A stretch of 44,529 nt of DNA, from sequence record PV610739.1; one strand, written 5' to 3'. Below the pieces are notes generated by a model. It made no database searches and had not been told where the DNA came from. It saw nothing but the letters and a program-made list of their open reading frames with translations. Positions 40-44,529 of the stretch are shown piece by piece. Numbering within the stretch: the stretch's first letter is position 1; each line of letters starts with the position of its first letter. The DNA comes from Escherichia phage SP1. The position numbers and the translations under genes are program-made.

Positions 40-79
40 ATTGGTTGCATTCAGCCTGGCACCCTGCTAGATTGGTTGC
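40..79. promoter_or_regulatory. two direct copies of 9-mer ATTGGTTGC (40-48, 71-79)
   Basis: Exact 9-mers spaced 31 bp; second copy sits in imperfect palindrome TTGGTTGCACACCAA about 25 bp upstream of ATG at 104. Confidence 0.4.
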
Positions 80-103
80 ACACCAACGAGAGGACCAAAC
101 AAA

Positions 104-274
104 ATGAAATTTCCAGTAACCATCAAAGACGGTAAATCAACTATCACCTTCACAAGCAACGACCAGGGCACCTATGAAAGCGGGGCGACTTGCATGTCTA
201 CCCTGGACGATGTGATGATTCGTGTTAATTCCGGTAAAGCCTCGATTGTTGACGACAACACTAAGAAGGACTGA
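104..274 (+). CDS. small hypothetical protein (56 aa)
   Basis: ATG-to-TGA ORF below the track length cutoff, directly downstream of the motif pair; no recognisable domain. Confidence 0.3.
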   Translation: MKFPVTIKDGKSTITFTSNDQGTYESGATCMSTLDDVMIRVNSGKASIVDDNTKKD

Positions 275-277
275 ACA

Positions 278-583
278 ATGAGAGCATTAATCTGGAAATA
301 CTCACGGGCCATAGCGAAGCTGGACGAAGCGAAAAACACAAACGGCAACGTAGACTATGCGCGCCAGTTTGCGGCGCGGGCACACCAACACATCATGAGT
401 GCGCTCGACGATATGGACGCCAGCATGGATGACCTGGGTCCGCTGCGTAAGGCTATCCATGAATACGCGCTGGCATTCTCCCGTGAGCGCCTGGCCTATC
501 GCTTCGGTATCGGGGATAAGGCAGTGACAAACGTCGCCCGGATTAAAGCACAGCGCGAACTATTCGCCCAGCTTGCGAAATAA
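278..583 (+). CDS. hypothetical early protein
   Basis: 101-aa ORF in the co-oriented early block; no recognisable motif. Confidence 0.5.
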   Translation: MRALIWKYSRAIAKLDEAKNTNGNVDYARQFAARAHQHIMSALDDMDASMDDLGPLRKAIHEYALAFSRERLAYRFGIGDKAVTNVARIKAQRELFAQLAK

Positions 584-592
584 GGGGCCAAA

Positions 593-865
593 ATGGGCCG
601 TAGCCGAGCTAAACAGCTTTCTTGGCATATTCCCCTGCATTGCATACGAATATGGGCTAAGAACGCGATTGAGGGCGATTCCGTGTACTGGTGCTATCGC
701 GATGACGTGAAGCCACTTACGCAGACCCGCTACTTGCACCAGTTCGCAGCACAACATGATTTCTATGTGCGGGCTTCCTTGCAACCAATGGGAATACGTA
801 TTACATTACGCCGGAAGCCCTCCGTTGAGCGGGTAGGCAAACACTGGAGACTGAGCAAATGTTAA
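593..865 (+). CDS. hypothetical protein
   Basis: 90-aa ORF tightly packed with neighbours; contains one in-frame copy of GCAACCAAT at 781-789. Confidence 0.45.
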   Translation: MGRSRAKQLSWHIPLHCIRIWAKNAIEGDSVYWCYRDDVKPLTQTRYLHQFAAQHDFYVRASLQPMGIRITLRRKPSVERVGKHWRLSKC

Positions 866-989
866 TAGGCGGATTCGCGCAGGCGCTTATCGACCTGCAT
901 ATGTGCGTACTTGACTACGAACAAAACGGCATCGCCACGATATGCGATGGCGACACGAAGACCATTGACGAGATTGAGGAGACTGAACA

Positions 990-1523
990 ATGAAATTACT
1001 ATTCCGCCGTAAATCAGATGGCTATATCCTGAAGCCGATCCAGACCCTATCAAACTGGGTACGCCTACACCACGAAGCGAGTGATAAAGTCTGGTGGGCG
1101 ACTAAGGCAAAGCTGCCGGAAAACTTTGACGTACTCACCCACGATATCGAGCGCGGCGATGTGCTGCGTGATATTCGCGACGGGCAGTTGTGGGTCGTCG
1201 AGTATGCCGGTCGTCATGGCCTGCGTATGCAATCCCGCAAGGAGGGCGTAGCGGGTATGACTTACTTCGGGCTAATCCACTATGAACGCGTGGGCCGCAA
1301 GTACAGCCTGCGTGCGCGCCAGCCTCATGAGCGAGCGAACAAGACCTACGACGCGAGCCAGGTGCAAGCCAGACTTAACACGGCAACGCGTGAGATTATT
1401 AATCGCTTCGATGCCGTGACGAATGCGCAGCGCCATGCGCAGGAATATGGCGTAGGATTCATCCGTGTCGAGCAAGACGGCAGCATGTCCGCTATAGACC
1501 CGCGCTCGGTAATACTGAAATGA
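990..1523 (+). CDS. hypothetical protein
   Basis: 177-aa ORF; ATGA start overlap with an upstream micro-ORF (859-993). Confidence 0.55.
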   Translation: MKLLFRRKSDGYILKPIQTLSNWVRLHHEASDKVWWATKAKLPENFDVLTHDIERGDVLRDIRDGQLWVVEYAGRHGLRMQSRKEGVAGMTYFGLIHYERVGRKYSLRARQPHERANKTYDASQVQARLNTATREIINRFDAVTNAQRHAQEYGVGFIRVEQDGSMSAIDPRSVILK

Positions 1524-41875: not shown

Positions 41876-41885
41876 GGCAACGGCA

Positions 41886-44150
41886 ATGAGCTTAATTAAA
41901 TTCGCAGTAACAAGACCCGCTAAAAAAGGCGAAAAAGCCAGGGCGGAAAACTTCGAGATGACCACTGATGAATTTTTCGAATTTATCAATGATGCAAAAG
42001 AAATCTCGTCGGTGCACATCAACAAGACTGAAGATAAAGCCGAGTATGCGCGCCGCAAGCGTAAGGCTGATGGCATCGTGGCCTATACCAATGATGGCTT
42101 ACGCCGCAAGACCAGTGCGGTCGACCGCTCGATCCTGTTCTTCGATATTGACCGTACTGACACCCGCACTTTACGCCGCTGTCGTAAGGCGTTCACCGAC
42201 GCTGGCCTGGAGCACGTATTCCACACCACCACCGGCGACCGCCACCCGCTGAAAGGTGGAACACGTTGCGCCCGTTTCCTGGTGCTCACTGATAAGCCAG
42301 TACCGGCGGAAGACCTGGGCCGCGTCCAGTATGCATTGTTAGACCAACTGGGCCTGTCAGATGTGGACTTCGACGATTGTACAAAAGACACAAACCGCCT
42401 TATGTACCTGCCTCACCAGCAGTCTGTCATAAAGTGCCATTATGGCAAGCGCGCCCGTGTCCGTCGTCTGCTTCGCCTGGCTGACAAGCTGGGAGTTGAG
42501 AAAGAGGAAGTGCGCCGCGAACTGACCCAGGGCGACGATGGCGTGGCGGACGGGATTCTGGACTGGTGCTTCCAGGCTGGCTTTGAACCACTGTCATCCG
42601 GTCGCGGTTATGAAGTGCCGTGCCCGAATGAGCACCTGCATAGCGGTGAAGGGTCGACGGCTATCATGGTTAAGGATGGCGAGATCCGTTTCAAGTGTAT
42701 GCACACCGGCAACGAATGCTGTTCCGAACTGAATAAACACCAGCACCTGGCGTTACGTCTGATCGGTATCCCGGACCACTTGAACGTCGAACCACACAAC
42801 ATGTCACGCAAGCAAATCGCCGCCATCCTTCCTGGACTGGACGTCGAGGAAGTGGAATCGTGCTACGAGCATATTGTTGATGCGGTCGGAGACGGCGACG
42901 AGTACGGCGAATGCACCGACGCTGACCTGGACAACGAGCCGGTCGCACTATTCAGTAAGCACGACCCGATCATCGAAGGCCTGGTCAACTTCAAATCGAC
43001 CTGGTATATGGCTGGTGAGTCGAACATTGGTAAGTCGTTCTACGTGCTGGGCCAGATGGGTGCTGTTGCCGCAGGTATTCCGTTCGGCGGTGCGAAGGTT
43101 GTCCAGTCGCATTGCTTCTATTTCGATGCGGAAGGCGGCGAAGCCTCAAACCAGCGTAAGGAAGCATTGCAGATTAAATATGAGCACGACCTCGACAAGC
43201 TGCACATTATCGATCTGCAATCACGCGGCTGGGATATCACCAGCAAGTCCGGCTTGCGCGAAGTTATCAGCTTTATCAACCGCACCGCTAACGGGGAGCC
43301 GGTTGGCCTGGTGGCCTTCGACTCACTAAACCAGACTGTAGCGCTGCGGTCCGCTGATGCCAAACCGTTCGACGAGAACAACGCCAGCGATATGGGCGAA
43401 GTTGTCAAAGCGCTGAAGTCCATTGCGGAAAATACAGGCGGCAGTGCGGGCGTCATCCATCACCCGGCTAAGGGTGCAAACGGCAGCAGATCCCCACGCG
43501 GGTCCGGCGCGCTTCATGGTGCTGTCGATTCTGCGTTCTTCCTGGAACAGCCGGACGACAACCAGCCAGGCCAGCTTAACCTGTATCACGAAAAATCCCG
43601 TAACGGGATCAAGCAAGCGCCGCGCGGCTTCGTCCTGCTCAAGTGCAAGGTTAAGGTGGATCTCCGCAAGTCTGATGCGTTCGAAGCCCACCAATCCACC
43701 AGCACCGGGCCAGACTTTGGTGATGTGGTTGCCGGTTGGGACGTCAAGCCAATTGCATCCACGCCACGCGACGAGACTCTCTACCTCGTACCGGTCGCCC
43801 TGGCACCGTTCGCTATCGAACAGGCTAAGGCAGCAGGCAAGGCAGCAGTTAAGGAAGAGAACACCGCCGGACCGCGCAACGAAAAAGAGAAGGTGCTTTA
43901 TGCGGCACTGGAAAAACTGATGGAAGATAACCCGGACCATACTGGATTCAGTAAATCGGCAATTGTCCGCCAGGCTGGACTTGCGAAAGGTGGCACATCG
44001 ACGAAGGCAATCGACGATATGGTGGAGCGCGGCGTGCTCGGTTTTTATACAGATCCACACACCGGGGCCATTTATGGGTCGTCGAATCTGGTCATCAAAT
44101 CGGATATCCCCATCACGCTTTCGGCGACCGATGACGACCTGAAAGATTAA
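41886..44150 (+). CDS. DNA primase-helicase fusion
   Basis: Central Cys/His zinc motif (CPNEHLH...CMHTGNEC), Walker A GESNIGKS and Walker B LVAFDSLNQ; ~150-aa C-terminal extension. Confidence 0.8.
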   Translation: MSLIKFAVTRPAKKGEKARAENFEMTTDEFFEFINDAKEISSVHINKTEDKAEYARRKRKADGIVAYTNDGLRRKTSAVDRSILFFDIDRTDTRTLRRCRKAFTDAGLEHVFHTTTGDRHPLKGGTRCARFLVLTDKPVPAEDLGRVQYALLDQLGLSDVDFDDCTKDTNRLMYLPHQQSVIKCHYGKRARVRRLLRLADKLGVEKEEVRRELTQGDDGVADGILDWCFQAGFEPLSSGRGYEVPCPNEHLHSGEGSTAIMVKDGEIRFKCMHTGNECCSELNKHQHLALRLIGIPDHLNVEPHNMSRKQIAAILPGLDVEEVESCYEHIVDAVGDGDEYGECTDADLDNEPVALFSKHDPIIEGLVNFKSTWYMAGESNIGKSFYVLGQMGAVAAGIPFGGAKVVQSHCFYFDAEGGEASNQRKEALQIKYEHDLDKLHIIDLQSRGWDITSKSGLREVISFINRTANGEPVGLVAFDSLNQTVALRSADAKPFDENNASDMGEVVKALKSIAENTGGSAGVIHHPAKGANGSRSPRGSGALHGAVDSAFFLEQPDDNQPGQLNLYHEKSRNGIKQAPRGFVLLKCKVKVDLRKSDAFEAHQSTSTGPDFGDVVAGWDVKPIASTPRDETLYLVPVALAPFAIEQAKAAGKAAVKEENTAGPRNEKEKVLYAALEKLMEDNPDHTGFSKSAIVRQAGLAKGGTSTKAIDDMVERGVLGFYTDPHTGAIYGSSNLVIKSDIPITLSATDDDLKD

Positions 44151-44160
44151 ATTTTGCGCG

Positions 44161-44204
44161 CATTGGTTGCCATTTTGATTGTTTTTAGCTGGTCGCATTG
44201 GTTG
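44161..44204. promoter_or_regulatory. two direct ATTGGTTGCC copies (44161-44170, 44196-44205)
   Basis: Exact 10-mers spaced 35 bp upstream of iteron array B; inverted copy GGCAACCAAT at 44478-44487. Confidence 0.45.
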
Positions 44205-44256
44205 CCGTGTAGTGTGAATATAGTGAATAGTTATGCATTTTTATTGCATAAAGTAA

Positions 44257-44358
44257 GCGGGACAAAAAGCGGGACAGACAGGGGGCGGGACAAGGCGGGA
44301 CAGCACCCCCGTCCCGCCCCGGATTACGCGGCTTGCGGGGGAGCGGGACAGGCGGGAC
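44257..44358. repeat. direct iteron array, copy B (6 x GCGGGAC)
   Basis: Iteron starts spaced 12, 16, 10, 48, 9 bp, the same phasing as copy A. Confidence 0.75.
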
Positions 44359-44362
44359 AACT

Positions 44363-44414
44363 CCCAGTCTTTCAGACTAGACGGGGGTCAGTTGGCCCCC
44401 CTCGTCTGAGACTG
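44363..44414. repeat. 52-bp hairpin element, copy B
   Basis: Base-for-base identical to 16853-16904. Confidence 0.8.
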
Positions 44415-44529
44415 CATAAAATCCTGGATTGCATAATGTACGGCAGTATGATGCGAATTGCGGTCGTTGATGAACTAGGCAACCAATGCGAGTTGTATTA
44501 TGGTGAGTGAAAAATGCAGTTTGCAGTTA

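Follow-up and report, generated by a model that had tools for sequence, protein, structure and literature searches.

A probable short operator dispersed over a phage genome

Short operators repeated over a whole phage genome are a known kind of element, the L5 stoperators and the P1 C1 operators being described examples. Phage L5 is temperate, and its lysogeny repressor gp71 has about 30 stoperators of 13 bp; all have the same orientation inside transcription units, where they halt elongation. The C1 operators of P1, a temperate phage with a plasmid prophage, have a 17-bp consensus, and antirepressor and co-repressor (Lxc) layers are added to their control. The MotA box of T4 has a single orientation and is always placed ~12 bp upstream of the -10 hexamer. 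Here we describe a 9-mer, ATTGGTTGC/GCAACCAAT, of Escherichia phage SP1 (sequence record PV610739.1). The stretch analysed, referred to as the window, comprises the whole 44,529-bp genome of this virulent siphophage, a Dhillonvirus infecting E. coli. On balance, we read the 9-mer as a dispersed asymmetric operator of a phage-encoded regulator acting mainly as a repressor, with a 109-aa protein of the early region as the leading candidate.

Like the L5 stoperators, the motif is a short asymmetric site (9 bp here, 13 bp in L5) with tens of copies genome-wide, concentrated in short intergenic gaps, with one small helix-turn-helix (HTH) protein as its putative reader and with a copy over the -35 of the main early promoter. 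It differs from them in that the phage is virulent, the proteins are unrelated and the sites lie on promoter cores in both orientations; relative to transcription 11 are co-oriented and 3 antisense, and there are palindromes and inverted pairs in addition, so the uniform orientation of stoperators is not seen. With the P1 C1 operators the motif shares asymmetric dispersed sites, single or as inverted pairs, over many promoters, but the P1 site has 17 bp and belongs to a temperate plasmid prophage, and there is no likeness in sequence or protein. Phage phi29 with its protein p4 resembles the present case in being virulent and in having a small early DNA-binding protein that represses early promoters, and the layout at 10982-11024, where the sites are so placed that they could repress Nmad5 and are upstream of the scaffold promoter, recalls A2b/A3. 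However, p4 uses a few inverted-repeat sites in one control region, together with p6, whereas about 20 asymmetric sites at a dozen promoters are present here. The T4 MotA box is likewise a 9-bp asymmetric motif at or over the -35 of many promoters in a virulent phage relying on host RNA polymerase throughout; here position and orientation are variable, although a subset of seven does keep a 19-nt gap, and no MotA or AsiA homologue is encoded. The first six bases of the motif equal ATTGGT, the half-site of the PdhR/FadR subfamily, but the 3-bp-spaced palindrome of PdhR, TTGGT-N3-ACCAA, never occurs (0 occurrences, with N5 three) and the conserved TGC extension is foreign to these operators. The CytR octamer GTTGCATT is found in 3 of 20 sites, and conservation is on the ATTGG side. 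In sum, the features that define stoperators, MotA boxes, PdhR operators, CytR operators and origin iterons are all missing from the motif.

The instance itself appears to be undescribed. Full-text literature searches for the 9-mer, for its 8-mer core and for Dhillonvirus promoters returned primers only, and in papers on Dhillonvirus-related genomes, at keyword level, no mention of a motif, an operator or a set of promoters was found. Few E. coli phages are isolated as often as Dhillonviruses, which figure in the BASEL collection, in studies of defence systems and in phage therapy. With one 9-bp word marking about a dozen early and middle promoters, the regulated units can be mapped, a candidate master regulator can be put to the test and compact regulated promoter parts become available for engineering.

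Abundance and arrangement of the motif

The gene map was carried over by tblastn from Bas83; both Haito_Bas83 and vB_EcoS_WFI are ~96% identical to the window. A replication and nucleotide-metabolism block is read leftward from 40.7 kb to 28.9 kb, the structural operon occupies 11.1-25.8 kb and the early control region, which is divergent, spans 41.28-41.55 kb. The rightward block starts with the 109-aa HTH protein, continues with the helicase-primase and, passing over the ends of the window, takes in small genes, lysis genes and the terminase. Searches of 5,426 complete E. coli genomes and of PLSDB (72,556 plasmids) found neither a prophage nor a plasmid copy of the control region. The phage is therefore taken to be no hidden temperate element, and the reading of the regulator as a lysogeny repressor was rejected for the same reason.

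Counted on both strands, the 9-mer has 15 exact copies, against a mean of 0.68 and a maximum of 3 in dinucleotide-preserving shuffles, and it is the joint top 9-mer of the genome by frequency. A first-pass annotation made from the letters of the window had reported at least 15 copies counted by eye and had set a shuffled control as the test beforehand. The number stands, and far exceeds the composition-matched background; three of the positions given for the copies were off by one (41347, 44162 and 44197, not 41346, 44161 and 44196). The same annotation also counted one-mismatch variants, which hold up in part: with any single mismatch allowed there are 24 sites against 12.5 expected, not significant alone, while the 8-mer core TTGGTTGC is present 20 times against 2.14 expected. 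The extra core copies are GTTGGTTGC (three times) and CTTGGTTGC (twice), and these, together with ATTGGTcGC, adjoin exact copies. Looser relatives of the site, ATTGGTTAA/ATTGGTTAG and TTGGTTGAG, occur in the same regions as exact copies, and the minimal core of the motif is TTGGT.

Under a conservative gene list only 6.3% of the genome is non-coding, and this fraction wholly contains 12 of the 15 exact copies and 16 of the 20 cores (binomial P ~1e-12), in agreement with the intergenic location noticed before. The palindrome proposed earlier at 30157-30178 is real and reads TGCAACCAAC-CT-ATTGGTTGCA. Direct pairs exist as well, with start-to-start distances of 12, 14, 16, 17, 23, 31 and 35 bp, a wider range than the 16-17 bp first assigned to them. 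A further arrangement, TTGGT-N5-ACCAA, which the first-pass annotation had not listed, is found three times (at 72, 10982 and 41517) against ~0.04 expected, each time at the start of a transcription unit, and ACCAA-N4-TTGGT occurs once.

Conservation and distribution

The copies are kept among Dhillonviruses: HK578, SO-1, PaulFeyerabend and Bas83 have 13-16 exact copies in the same places. Ten regulatory regions were aligned, each with 2 to 16 distinct sequences, drawn from 18 Dhillonvirus loci in all. Columns without variation make up 94% of those inside the motif and 74% of those outside it (Fisher P = 7e-10). Four metagenomic relatives (L141-L144), which are syntenic and ~72% identical to the window over the alignable half, again have ATTGGTTGC as their top 9-mer, with 12, 8, 5 and 11 copies in 10-20 kb, the counts of 12, 8 and 11 each coming from 20 kb. 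At their orthologous promoters the sites have changed number, orientation or place and yet stay within the polymerase footprint. Thus the leftward early promoter P_L has one site in the window and two tandem copies filling the spacer in L141-L143, and the site of the SSB promoter abuts the -10 in the window and touches the -35 in L142. Turnover of this kind would be tolerated by steric repression, not by precise activation.

Outside this group, PhiSTP2 has 0 copies of TTGGTTGC, and a Kagunavirus and a Jerseyvirus have 3 copies each, which is about chance level. Serratia phage Otaku carries 12 against 1.47 expected; one of them is at the +1 of a consensus promoter before a Lar-like open reading frame (ORF), and four lie in different reading frames at the end of the helicase-primase gene. 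Across related phages, the comparison suggested by the first-pass annotation, the motif proved characteristic of Dhillonvirus and its metagenomic relatives, with nothing above chance in PhiSTP2, the Kagunavirus and the Jerseyvirus. A scan of IMG/VR for pairs of TTGGTTGC was unusable for tracing the motif further, as besides SO-1 the multi-hit contigs inspected held collagen-like GNQ coding repeats or another tandem repeat. In Salmonella phage Kenya-K28 (a Jerseyvirus, L147) the top 12-mer is a different dispersed palindrome, ATAATAGAGTAC with its reverse complement, present four times, a hint that every one of these related lineages has a scattered operator particular to it.

Placement on predicted promoters

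Promoters were called as sigma70-like matches to the consensus or to a position weight matrix, the non-coding regions being read in the direction of their genes. The nine best predictions include six that overlap a site and, as a seventh, the rightward early promoter P_R with a palindromic variant. All sites at promoters are located between about -40 and +11. With 69 sites from five divergent genomes pooled, a -10-like hexamer is found 19 nt downstream of the motif in 7 cases and overlapping the motif 5' end in 12, against a background of 0.6 per offset; smaller peaks appear on the other strand, directly adjoining the motif. A consistent placement relative to transcription starts, named in advance as decisive, is thus seen with respect to predicted hexamers, and so is the reported overlap with -35/spacer regions and the neighbourhoods of ribosome-binding sites (RBS), for instance at g58, the Lar-like gene and P_L. 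In its enrichment, and in its overlap with promoters that are themselves predicted, the motif behaves as would be expected of a dispersed operator of a phage-encoded regulator.

Within the promoter, the position is not fixed. The gap between motif and -10 is -3, 0-2, 5-8, 13 or 18-19 nt, or the site lies past the -10, and both orientations are used. Two sites per promoter are the rule, in clusters of one to three. The g58, g36, Lar-like and g29 promoters obtain their -35 (TTGCnn) from a forward copy and each have one more, located either in the spacer or over the -10, and promoters with reverse-oriented spacer sites have TTGAC(A/C/T) as the -35. Because position varies in this way, "operator" is a better name than "promoter element". 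The first-pass annotation had offered both names, for a phage-specific regulator; count, placement and lineage agree with the former, the latter fits less well, and the binder itself we infer.

The promoters carrying the motif serve replication, nucleotide-metabolism and small early genes. The sites keep to the early and middle regions and to the borders between divergent units. No site is found in the packaging and structural operons, the region 11.1-27.0 kb holds one coding copy only, and 3.4-10.9 kb holds none. The candidate packaging and structural promoters are free of the motif, for example the extended -10 TGTTATAAT before the small terminase gene.

The main rival to an operator is a dual switch, founded on the subset of promoters with a weak, motif-supplied -35 at a constant 19 nt. 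The motif would then be a positive promoter element on which a sigma-region-4-like HTH serves as surrogate -35 reader or class II activator of TTGCnn middle promoters, and spacer copies would turn the consensus early promoters off, making a one-protein early-to-middle switch. We regard this as possible, if rather unlikely. It has in its favour the seven cases from divergent genomes in which the forward motif stands exactly 19 nt (in one case 18) before the -10 and places TTGCnn at the -35 of promoters with weak -35 hexamers. The HTH of the candidate regulator exceeds the Pfam threshold for Sigma70_r4_2 and can be aligned with ECF sigma models at their region-4 end, and the pair at 10989-11011 is about -59/-73 from the divergent scaffold promoter. 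However, these promoters have another copy as well, placed in the spacer, over the -10 or at +1, at which a bound activator would be an obstacle, and both position and orientation differ among orthologous promoters. The 19-nt gap follows more simply from the TTGC of the motif itself serving as a sigma70 -35, and likeness to sigma region 4 is common to all small tri-helical HTH domains.

An RNA element, that is, a hairpin of the 5' untranslated or inter-cistronic region, a processing site or a translational operator, is very improbable. The sequence AACCAA(U/C) does recur 0-4 nt upstream of Shine-Dalgarno sequences, and at eight translation starts in the window or in Otaku (g54, orf173, tail fibre, 70-aa ORF, g58, Nmad5, a mini-ORF and the Otaku Lar-like ORF) (G/U/C)(C/A)AACCAA(U/C) or ACCAAC is directly 5' of the RBS; the 30157-30178 palindrome and TTGGT-N5-ACCAA could also fold. 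Proximity to the RBS simply follows from short leaders, though, and both orientations of the motif occur. Many copies are upstream of the predicted start and thus outside the transcript of that promoter, and the direct-repeat pairs are unable to pair with each other. An Rfam scan of the window gave 0 matches at the gathering score, and a tRNA scan was likewise empty.

The candidate regulator

The leading candidate is the 109-aa protein encoded at 41546-41875 on the plus strand, in which a variable N-terminus is followed by a helix of 59 residues and then, at the C-terminus, by an invariant tri-helical HTH. Among the 40 proteins scanned it is the only one above a curated Pfam cut-off for a DNA-binding HTH (HTH_23, Sigma70_r4_2 and HTH_28), and it has sub-threshold matches to the region-4 end of ECF sigma models. 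Its AlphaFold2 model (pLDDT 85) consists of a short helix, the 59-residue helix and the C-terminal HTH. Superposition of this HTH on serine recombinases, LuxR/NarL proteins and sigma factors matches their DNA-binding domains to within 0.7-1.5 A, with E-values that are not significant; resemblance to sigma region 4 is, as said, shared by all domains of this type. A sequence search of the PDB with the regulator profile returned only coiled-coil and designed-repeat noise. The family is narrow, with 35 clusters that all come from Dhillonvirus-like contigs, and the gene is always the first of the rightward early operon and is present in every Dhillonvirus-like genome examined that has the motif. 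A single small HTH would fit an asymmetric site of ~9 bp, and a flexible coiled-coil dimer would fit the varied spacings and orientations.

The last 60 residues of the protein are nearly invariant, and the first 45 are hypervariable and freely replaced. In HK578-type alleles the N-terminal 45 residues are swapped for an unrelated extension of 80 residues, and the HK578 homologue is 58% identical over a third of its length, most of the matched neighbour genes being at least 85% identical. This pattern suggests modular exchange or an arms-race interface.

Several observations weigh against the 109-aa protein. Otaku has the motif and lacks a homologue, even in a search by C-terminal-domain profile; in the corresponding position it encodes a protein of the XRE type. 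In L144 the homologue is only 44% identical and has substitutions in the recognition helix, and the motif is unchanged. The HK578-type alleles have no operator downstream of their own promoter. Finally, phyletic subtraction (genes common to Otaku and the Dhillonvirus-like genomes and missing from PhiSTP2, the Kagunavirus and the Jerseyvirus) gave no better candidate, as it left Dam and PNK only and so identified no binder. Because of these four points we put the 109-aa protein at an even chance of being the reader of the motif, while a phage-encoded binder of some kind is probable.

Other products of the phage were considered and rejected. The 380-aa calcineurin-like phosphoesterase (3729-4871, plus strand) is missing from L141-L144, which bear the motif. 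It has a sub-threshold LuxR/GerE-type HTH at residues 14-46, and the SO-1 record calls it a putative transcriptional regulator. The recognition region of the C-terminal winged helix of the helicase-primase differs between the window and Otaku, in which TTGGTTGC is the same. The first leftward gene, of the orf173 family, is also present in PhiSTP2 and has no specific DNA-binding fold. Its product (40758-41279, minus strand), kept from Dhillonvirus to Guernseyvirinae, begins with a conserved helix and ends in an acidic domain, and between the two is a long KPAK/E-rich linker of low complexity.

A DNA-binding protein of the enterobacterial host might read the motif instead, the phage HTH protein being an unrelated Cro-like regulator, but this seems improbable. 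It would account for a 9-mer that stays invariant where the candidate homologue falls to 44% identity and for its presence in Otaku, and the ATTGGT half-site of FadR-subfamily GntR regulators, such as PdhR, points, as a lead only, in the same direction. On the other hand, PhiSTP2, the Kagunavirus and the Jerseyvirus are related phages on the same hosts and do not use the motif. Neither the geometry of PdhR (TTGGT-N3-ACCAA is absent from the window) nor the octamer of CytR matches the sites, so that, as far as these two regulators go, the first-pass view of the motif as no recognised host-factor site is upheld. We know of no E. coli factor with such an asymmetric 9-mer, and the literature search found none.

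Mode of action

What the data show is the enrichment of the motif, its non-coding bias, its overlap with promoters, its conservation and its spread over lineages; that a protein binds it, which protein this is and that it represses are inferred. A protein-binding element of transcriptional control is very likely. The net effect is, more likely than not, mainly repression. Repression is favoured because the sites overlap polymerase contacts, come in pairs, are found on strong promoters and move freely within the footprint. A regulator on its site would exclude the host RNA polymerase from a sigma70-type promoter, so that one regulator could turn down a dozen promoters together. The targets would be the two divergent early promoters, those of SSB, the Lar-like gene, g36, g32, Nmad5 and the lipoprotein genes, as well as the g58-g65 small-gene cluster and the promoter facing the putative origin repeats. 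As the early protein accumulates, a dozen early and middle promoters would be turned down at the same time, and the late promoters, having no site, would keep running. The 109-aa protein would act through its long, probably dimerising helix carrying the small C-terminal HTH, and in this genome it may feed back on its own operon, since the palindromic site at the +1 of its own promoter implies negative autoregulation.

Repression has its difficulties too. Several of the promoters with a motif-derived TTGCnn as the -35 are weak and have a constant gap of 18-19 nt, a geometry that would also suit an activator, and all promoters considered are predicted, being matches to a consensus. A more speculative idea, which we consider quite unlikely, is that the 109-aa protein is a free-standing analogue of sigma region 4 whose long helix docks on the host RNA polymerase and whose HTH reads ATTGGTTGC as the -35. 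It would silence the consensus early promoters, in which the site is in the spacer, and activate the TTGCnn middle promoters, in which it is at -36. Such a protein would be a single-protein counterpart of T4 AsiA plus MotA, with the hypervariable N-terminus as the arms-race interface. A true sigma-region-4-like adaptor would represent a new way for phages without a polymerase of their own to reprogramme the host enzyme.

Sites along the genome

In the early control region, P_L (41340-41369, minus strand, TTGACA-18-TATTAT) is the best sigma70 match of the genome and has GCAACCAAT (41347-41355) in its spacer. The HTH gene has P_R (41486-41532, plus strand, TTGACA-17-TAGTTT) as its predicted promoter, and the palindrome TTGGTCATTAACCAA comes after P_R at 41517-41531, that is, at ~+1 to +15 and directly 5' of the RBS of that gene. 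The weak variant ATTGGTTAA (41292-41300, plus strand) is 5' of the RBS of the first leftward gene, and the variant ATTGGTTAG is at 41414-41422 on the minus strand.

In the leftward block, the SSB promoter (38603-38641, minus strand, TTGACC-17-TAAATT) has two copies of GCAACCAAG, one in the spacer directly against the -10 (38619-38627) and the other a single base past it (38603-38611, minus strand). At the promoter of the Lar-like gene (34763-34796, minus strand, TTGCTG-17-TATAGT), the -35 TTGCTG is supplied by ATTGGTTGC at 34788-34796, and ATTGGTcGC (34776-34784, minus strand) is in the spacer. Two copies of ATTGGTTGC, 17 bp start to start, lie in a predicted promoter at 31822-31855 (minus strand), the copy at 31847-31855 supplying the -35 TTGCGT and that at 31830-31838 abutting the -10 TATCTT. 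The palindrome 30157-30178 fills the -35 and spacer of a predicted promoter between the PNK gene and g32 (30150-30179, minus strand, TTGCAA-18-TATAGT). Further left, the promoter of the lipoprotein gene g29 (27068-27114, minus strand, TTGCAT-16-TAATAC) has ATTGGTTGC (27106-27114) over its -35 and the variants TTGGTTGAG at 27093-27102 (minus strand) and 27068-27076 (plus strand); on the plus strand this region is directly 5' of the tail-fibre RBS.

Several of these units combine a terminator hairpin with a promoter bearing a site. At 31822-31855 a hairpin with a T-run immediately follows the pair, so that terminator and promoter overlap. Stable hairpins begin within a few bases of the predicted -10 at 31790-31830, 30105-30150 and 38555-38600, with a T-run in one of them; as they start near the -10, the complete hairpin would form only in transcripts arriving from upstream. 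Overlapping terminator/promoter units thus occur along the leftward block, at which transcription from upstream would stop and restart at the promoter bearing the site.

The Nmad5 promoter (10982-11024, minus strand, TTGCAA-18-TATATT) has two copies of ATTGGTTGC, one in the spacer (11003-11011) and one over the -10/+1 (10989-10997), and a TTGGT-N5-ACCAA palindrome at 10982-10996. Relative to the divergent scaffold promoter, this pair (10989-11011) is at about -59/-73. The gene below this double-site promoter (10201-10965, minus strand) encodes an Nmad5 protein with a nucleotide-modification-associated domain (PF18757, E = 7e-56), and Dam-like and Dcm-like methyltransferases are also encoded in the genome.

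On the rightward side, the predicted promoter at 3310-3339 (plus strand, TTGACT-18-CATACT) is located right after a terminator (3279-3302) and 5' of the 70-aa ORF and the phosphoesterase operon; it has GCAACCAAC (3317-3325) in the spacer and GCAACCAAT (3340-3348) directly past the -10. The predicted g58 promoter (45-73, plus strand, TTGCAT-17-TAGATT) takes its -35 TTGCAT from ATTGGTTGC at 40-48, and another ATTGGTTGC over its -10/+1 (in 71-86, plus strand) forms part of the palindrome TTGGTTGCACACCAA (72-86), directly 5' of the g58 RBS. One copy is within the coding sequence of g60 (781-789, minus strand) and is kept in relatives; on the plus strand it reads TTGCAACCAAT and forms the -35 of a predicted internal promoter (779-807, TTGCAA-17-TACATT). 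At the other end of the window two copies of ATTGGTTGC (44162-44170 and 44197-44205, in 44162-44224, plus strand) precede the -10 TATAGT (44219-44224), right after the helicase-primase stop and facing a repeat array of GCGGGACA. Between this array and the g58 promoter, ATTGGTTGC is found at 44479-44487 on the minus strand, and GCAACCAAT is 8 nt upstream of TATTAT on the plus strand. The conserved GTTGGTTGC within a minor-tail gene (21649-21657, minus strand) may be a chance or coding occurrence, since no promoter is evident there.

Repeat arrays and other features of the genome

Five copies of the motif flank the GCGGGACA repeat region beside the helicase-primase gene, copies also fall within the 3' end of that gene in relatives and in Otaku, and Dam and PNK are the only genes specifically common to the motif-bearing genomes. 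These facts would accord with a role in DNA metabolism, such as iterons, helicase-primase entry, or a nick, methylation or packaging signal, which nevertheless we think highly improbable. The motif is spread over ~12 dispersed loci tied to promoter hexamers and does not cluster at a single origin, and it is a different repeat, GCGGGACA, that forms arrays. The helicase-primase C-terminus and the arrays differ between the window and Otaku (GCGGGACA and TTCCGCACA, respectively), and TTGGTTGC is the same in both. The known nick sites of T5- and phiKMV-type phages are strand-specific, unlike the motif, of which both strands are used, and its non-coding bias would be unexpected of methylation targets.

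The arrays themselves are built of (A/G)CGGGAC(A) repeats and are found at 44240-44360 and 16575-16900, with 13 copies of GCGGGACA against 1.8 expected, and both are followed by the same hairpin-containing sequence, cagtctttcagactagacgggggtcagttggcccccctcgtctgagactg. Small hypothetical ORFs are annotated over the arrays in relatives, and the SO-1 record names them repeat regions A and B. Repeats occur in the equivalent place in Otaku (TTCCGCACA) and in PhiSTP2 (GGGGGAGA). The arrays probably serve as origins or iterons, with the helicase-primase as their reader through its winged-helix C-terminus. For that protein GCGGGACA is the more likely target, because its recognition region differs between the window and Otaku, as do the iterons. 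The words TGCATAA/TGCATAC recur in both repeat regions of the window. A box, GAATAGTTATGCA/GAATAGTTATTC, stands by the repeat arrays in phages that otherwise diverge, namely the window (44225-44240), PhiSTP2 and L142-L144; it is at about 17150-17200 in L004 and after the helicase-primase in L142/L143.

As a comparison with L002, L127-L130 and L134-L139 shows, most Dhillonviruses have an insertion of ~135 bp in the early control region, at the place of 41300-41305 of the window, which is missing in the window and in Bas83. It holds a promoter-like box, GGTTATATAATCAC, and GC-rich paired segments, and could encode a small RNA or provide an extra promoter.

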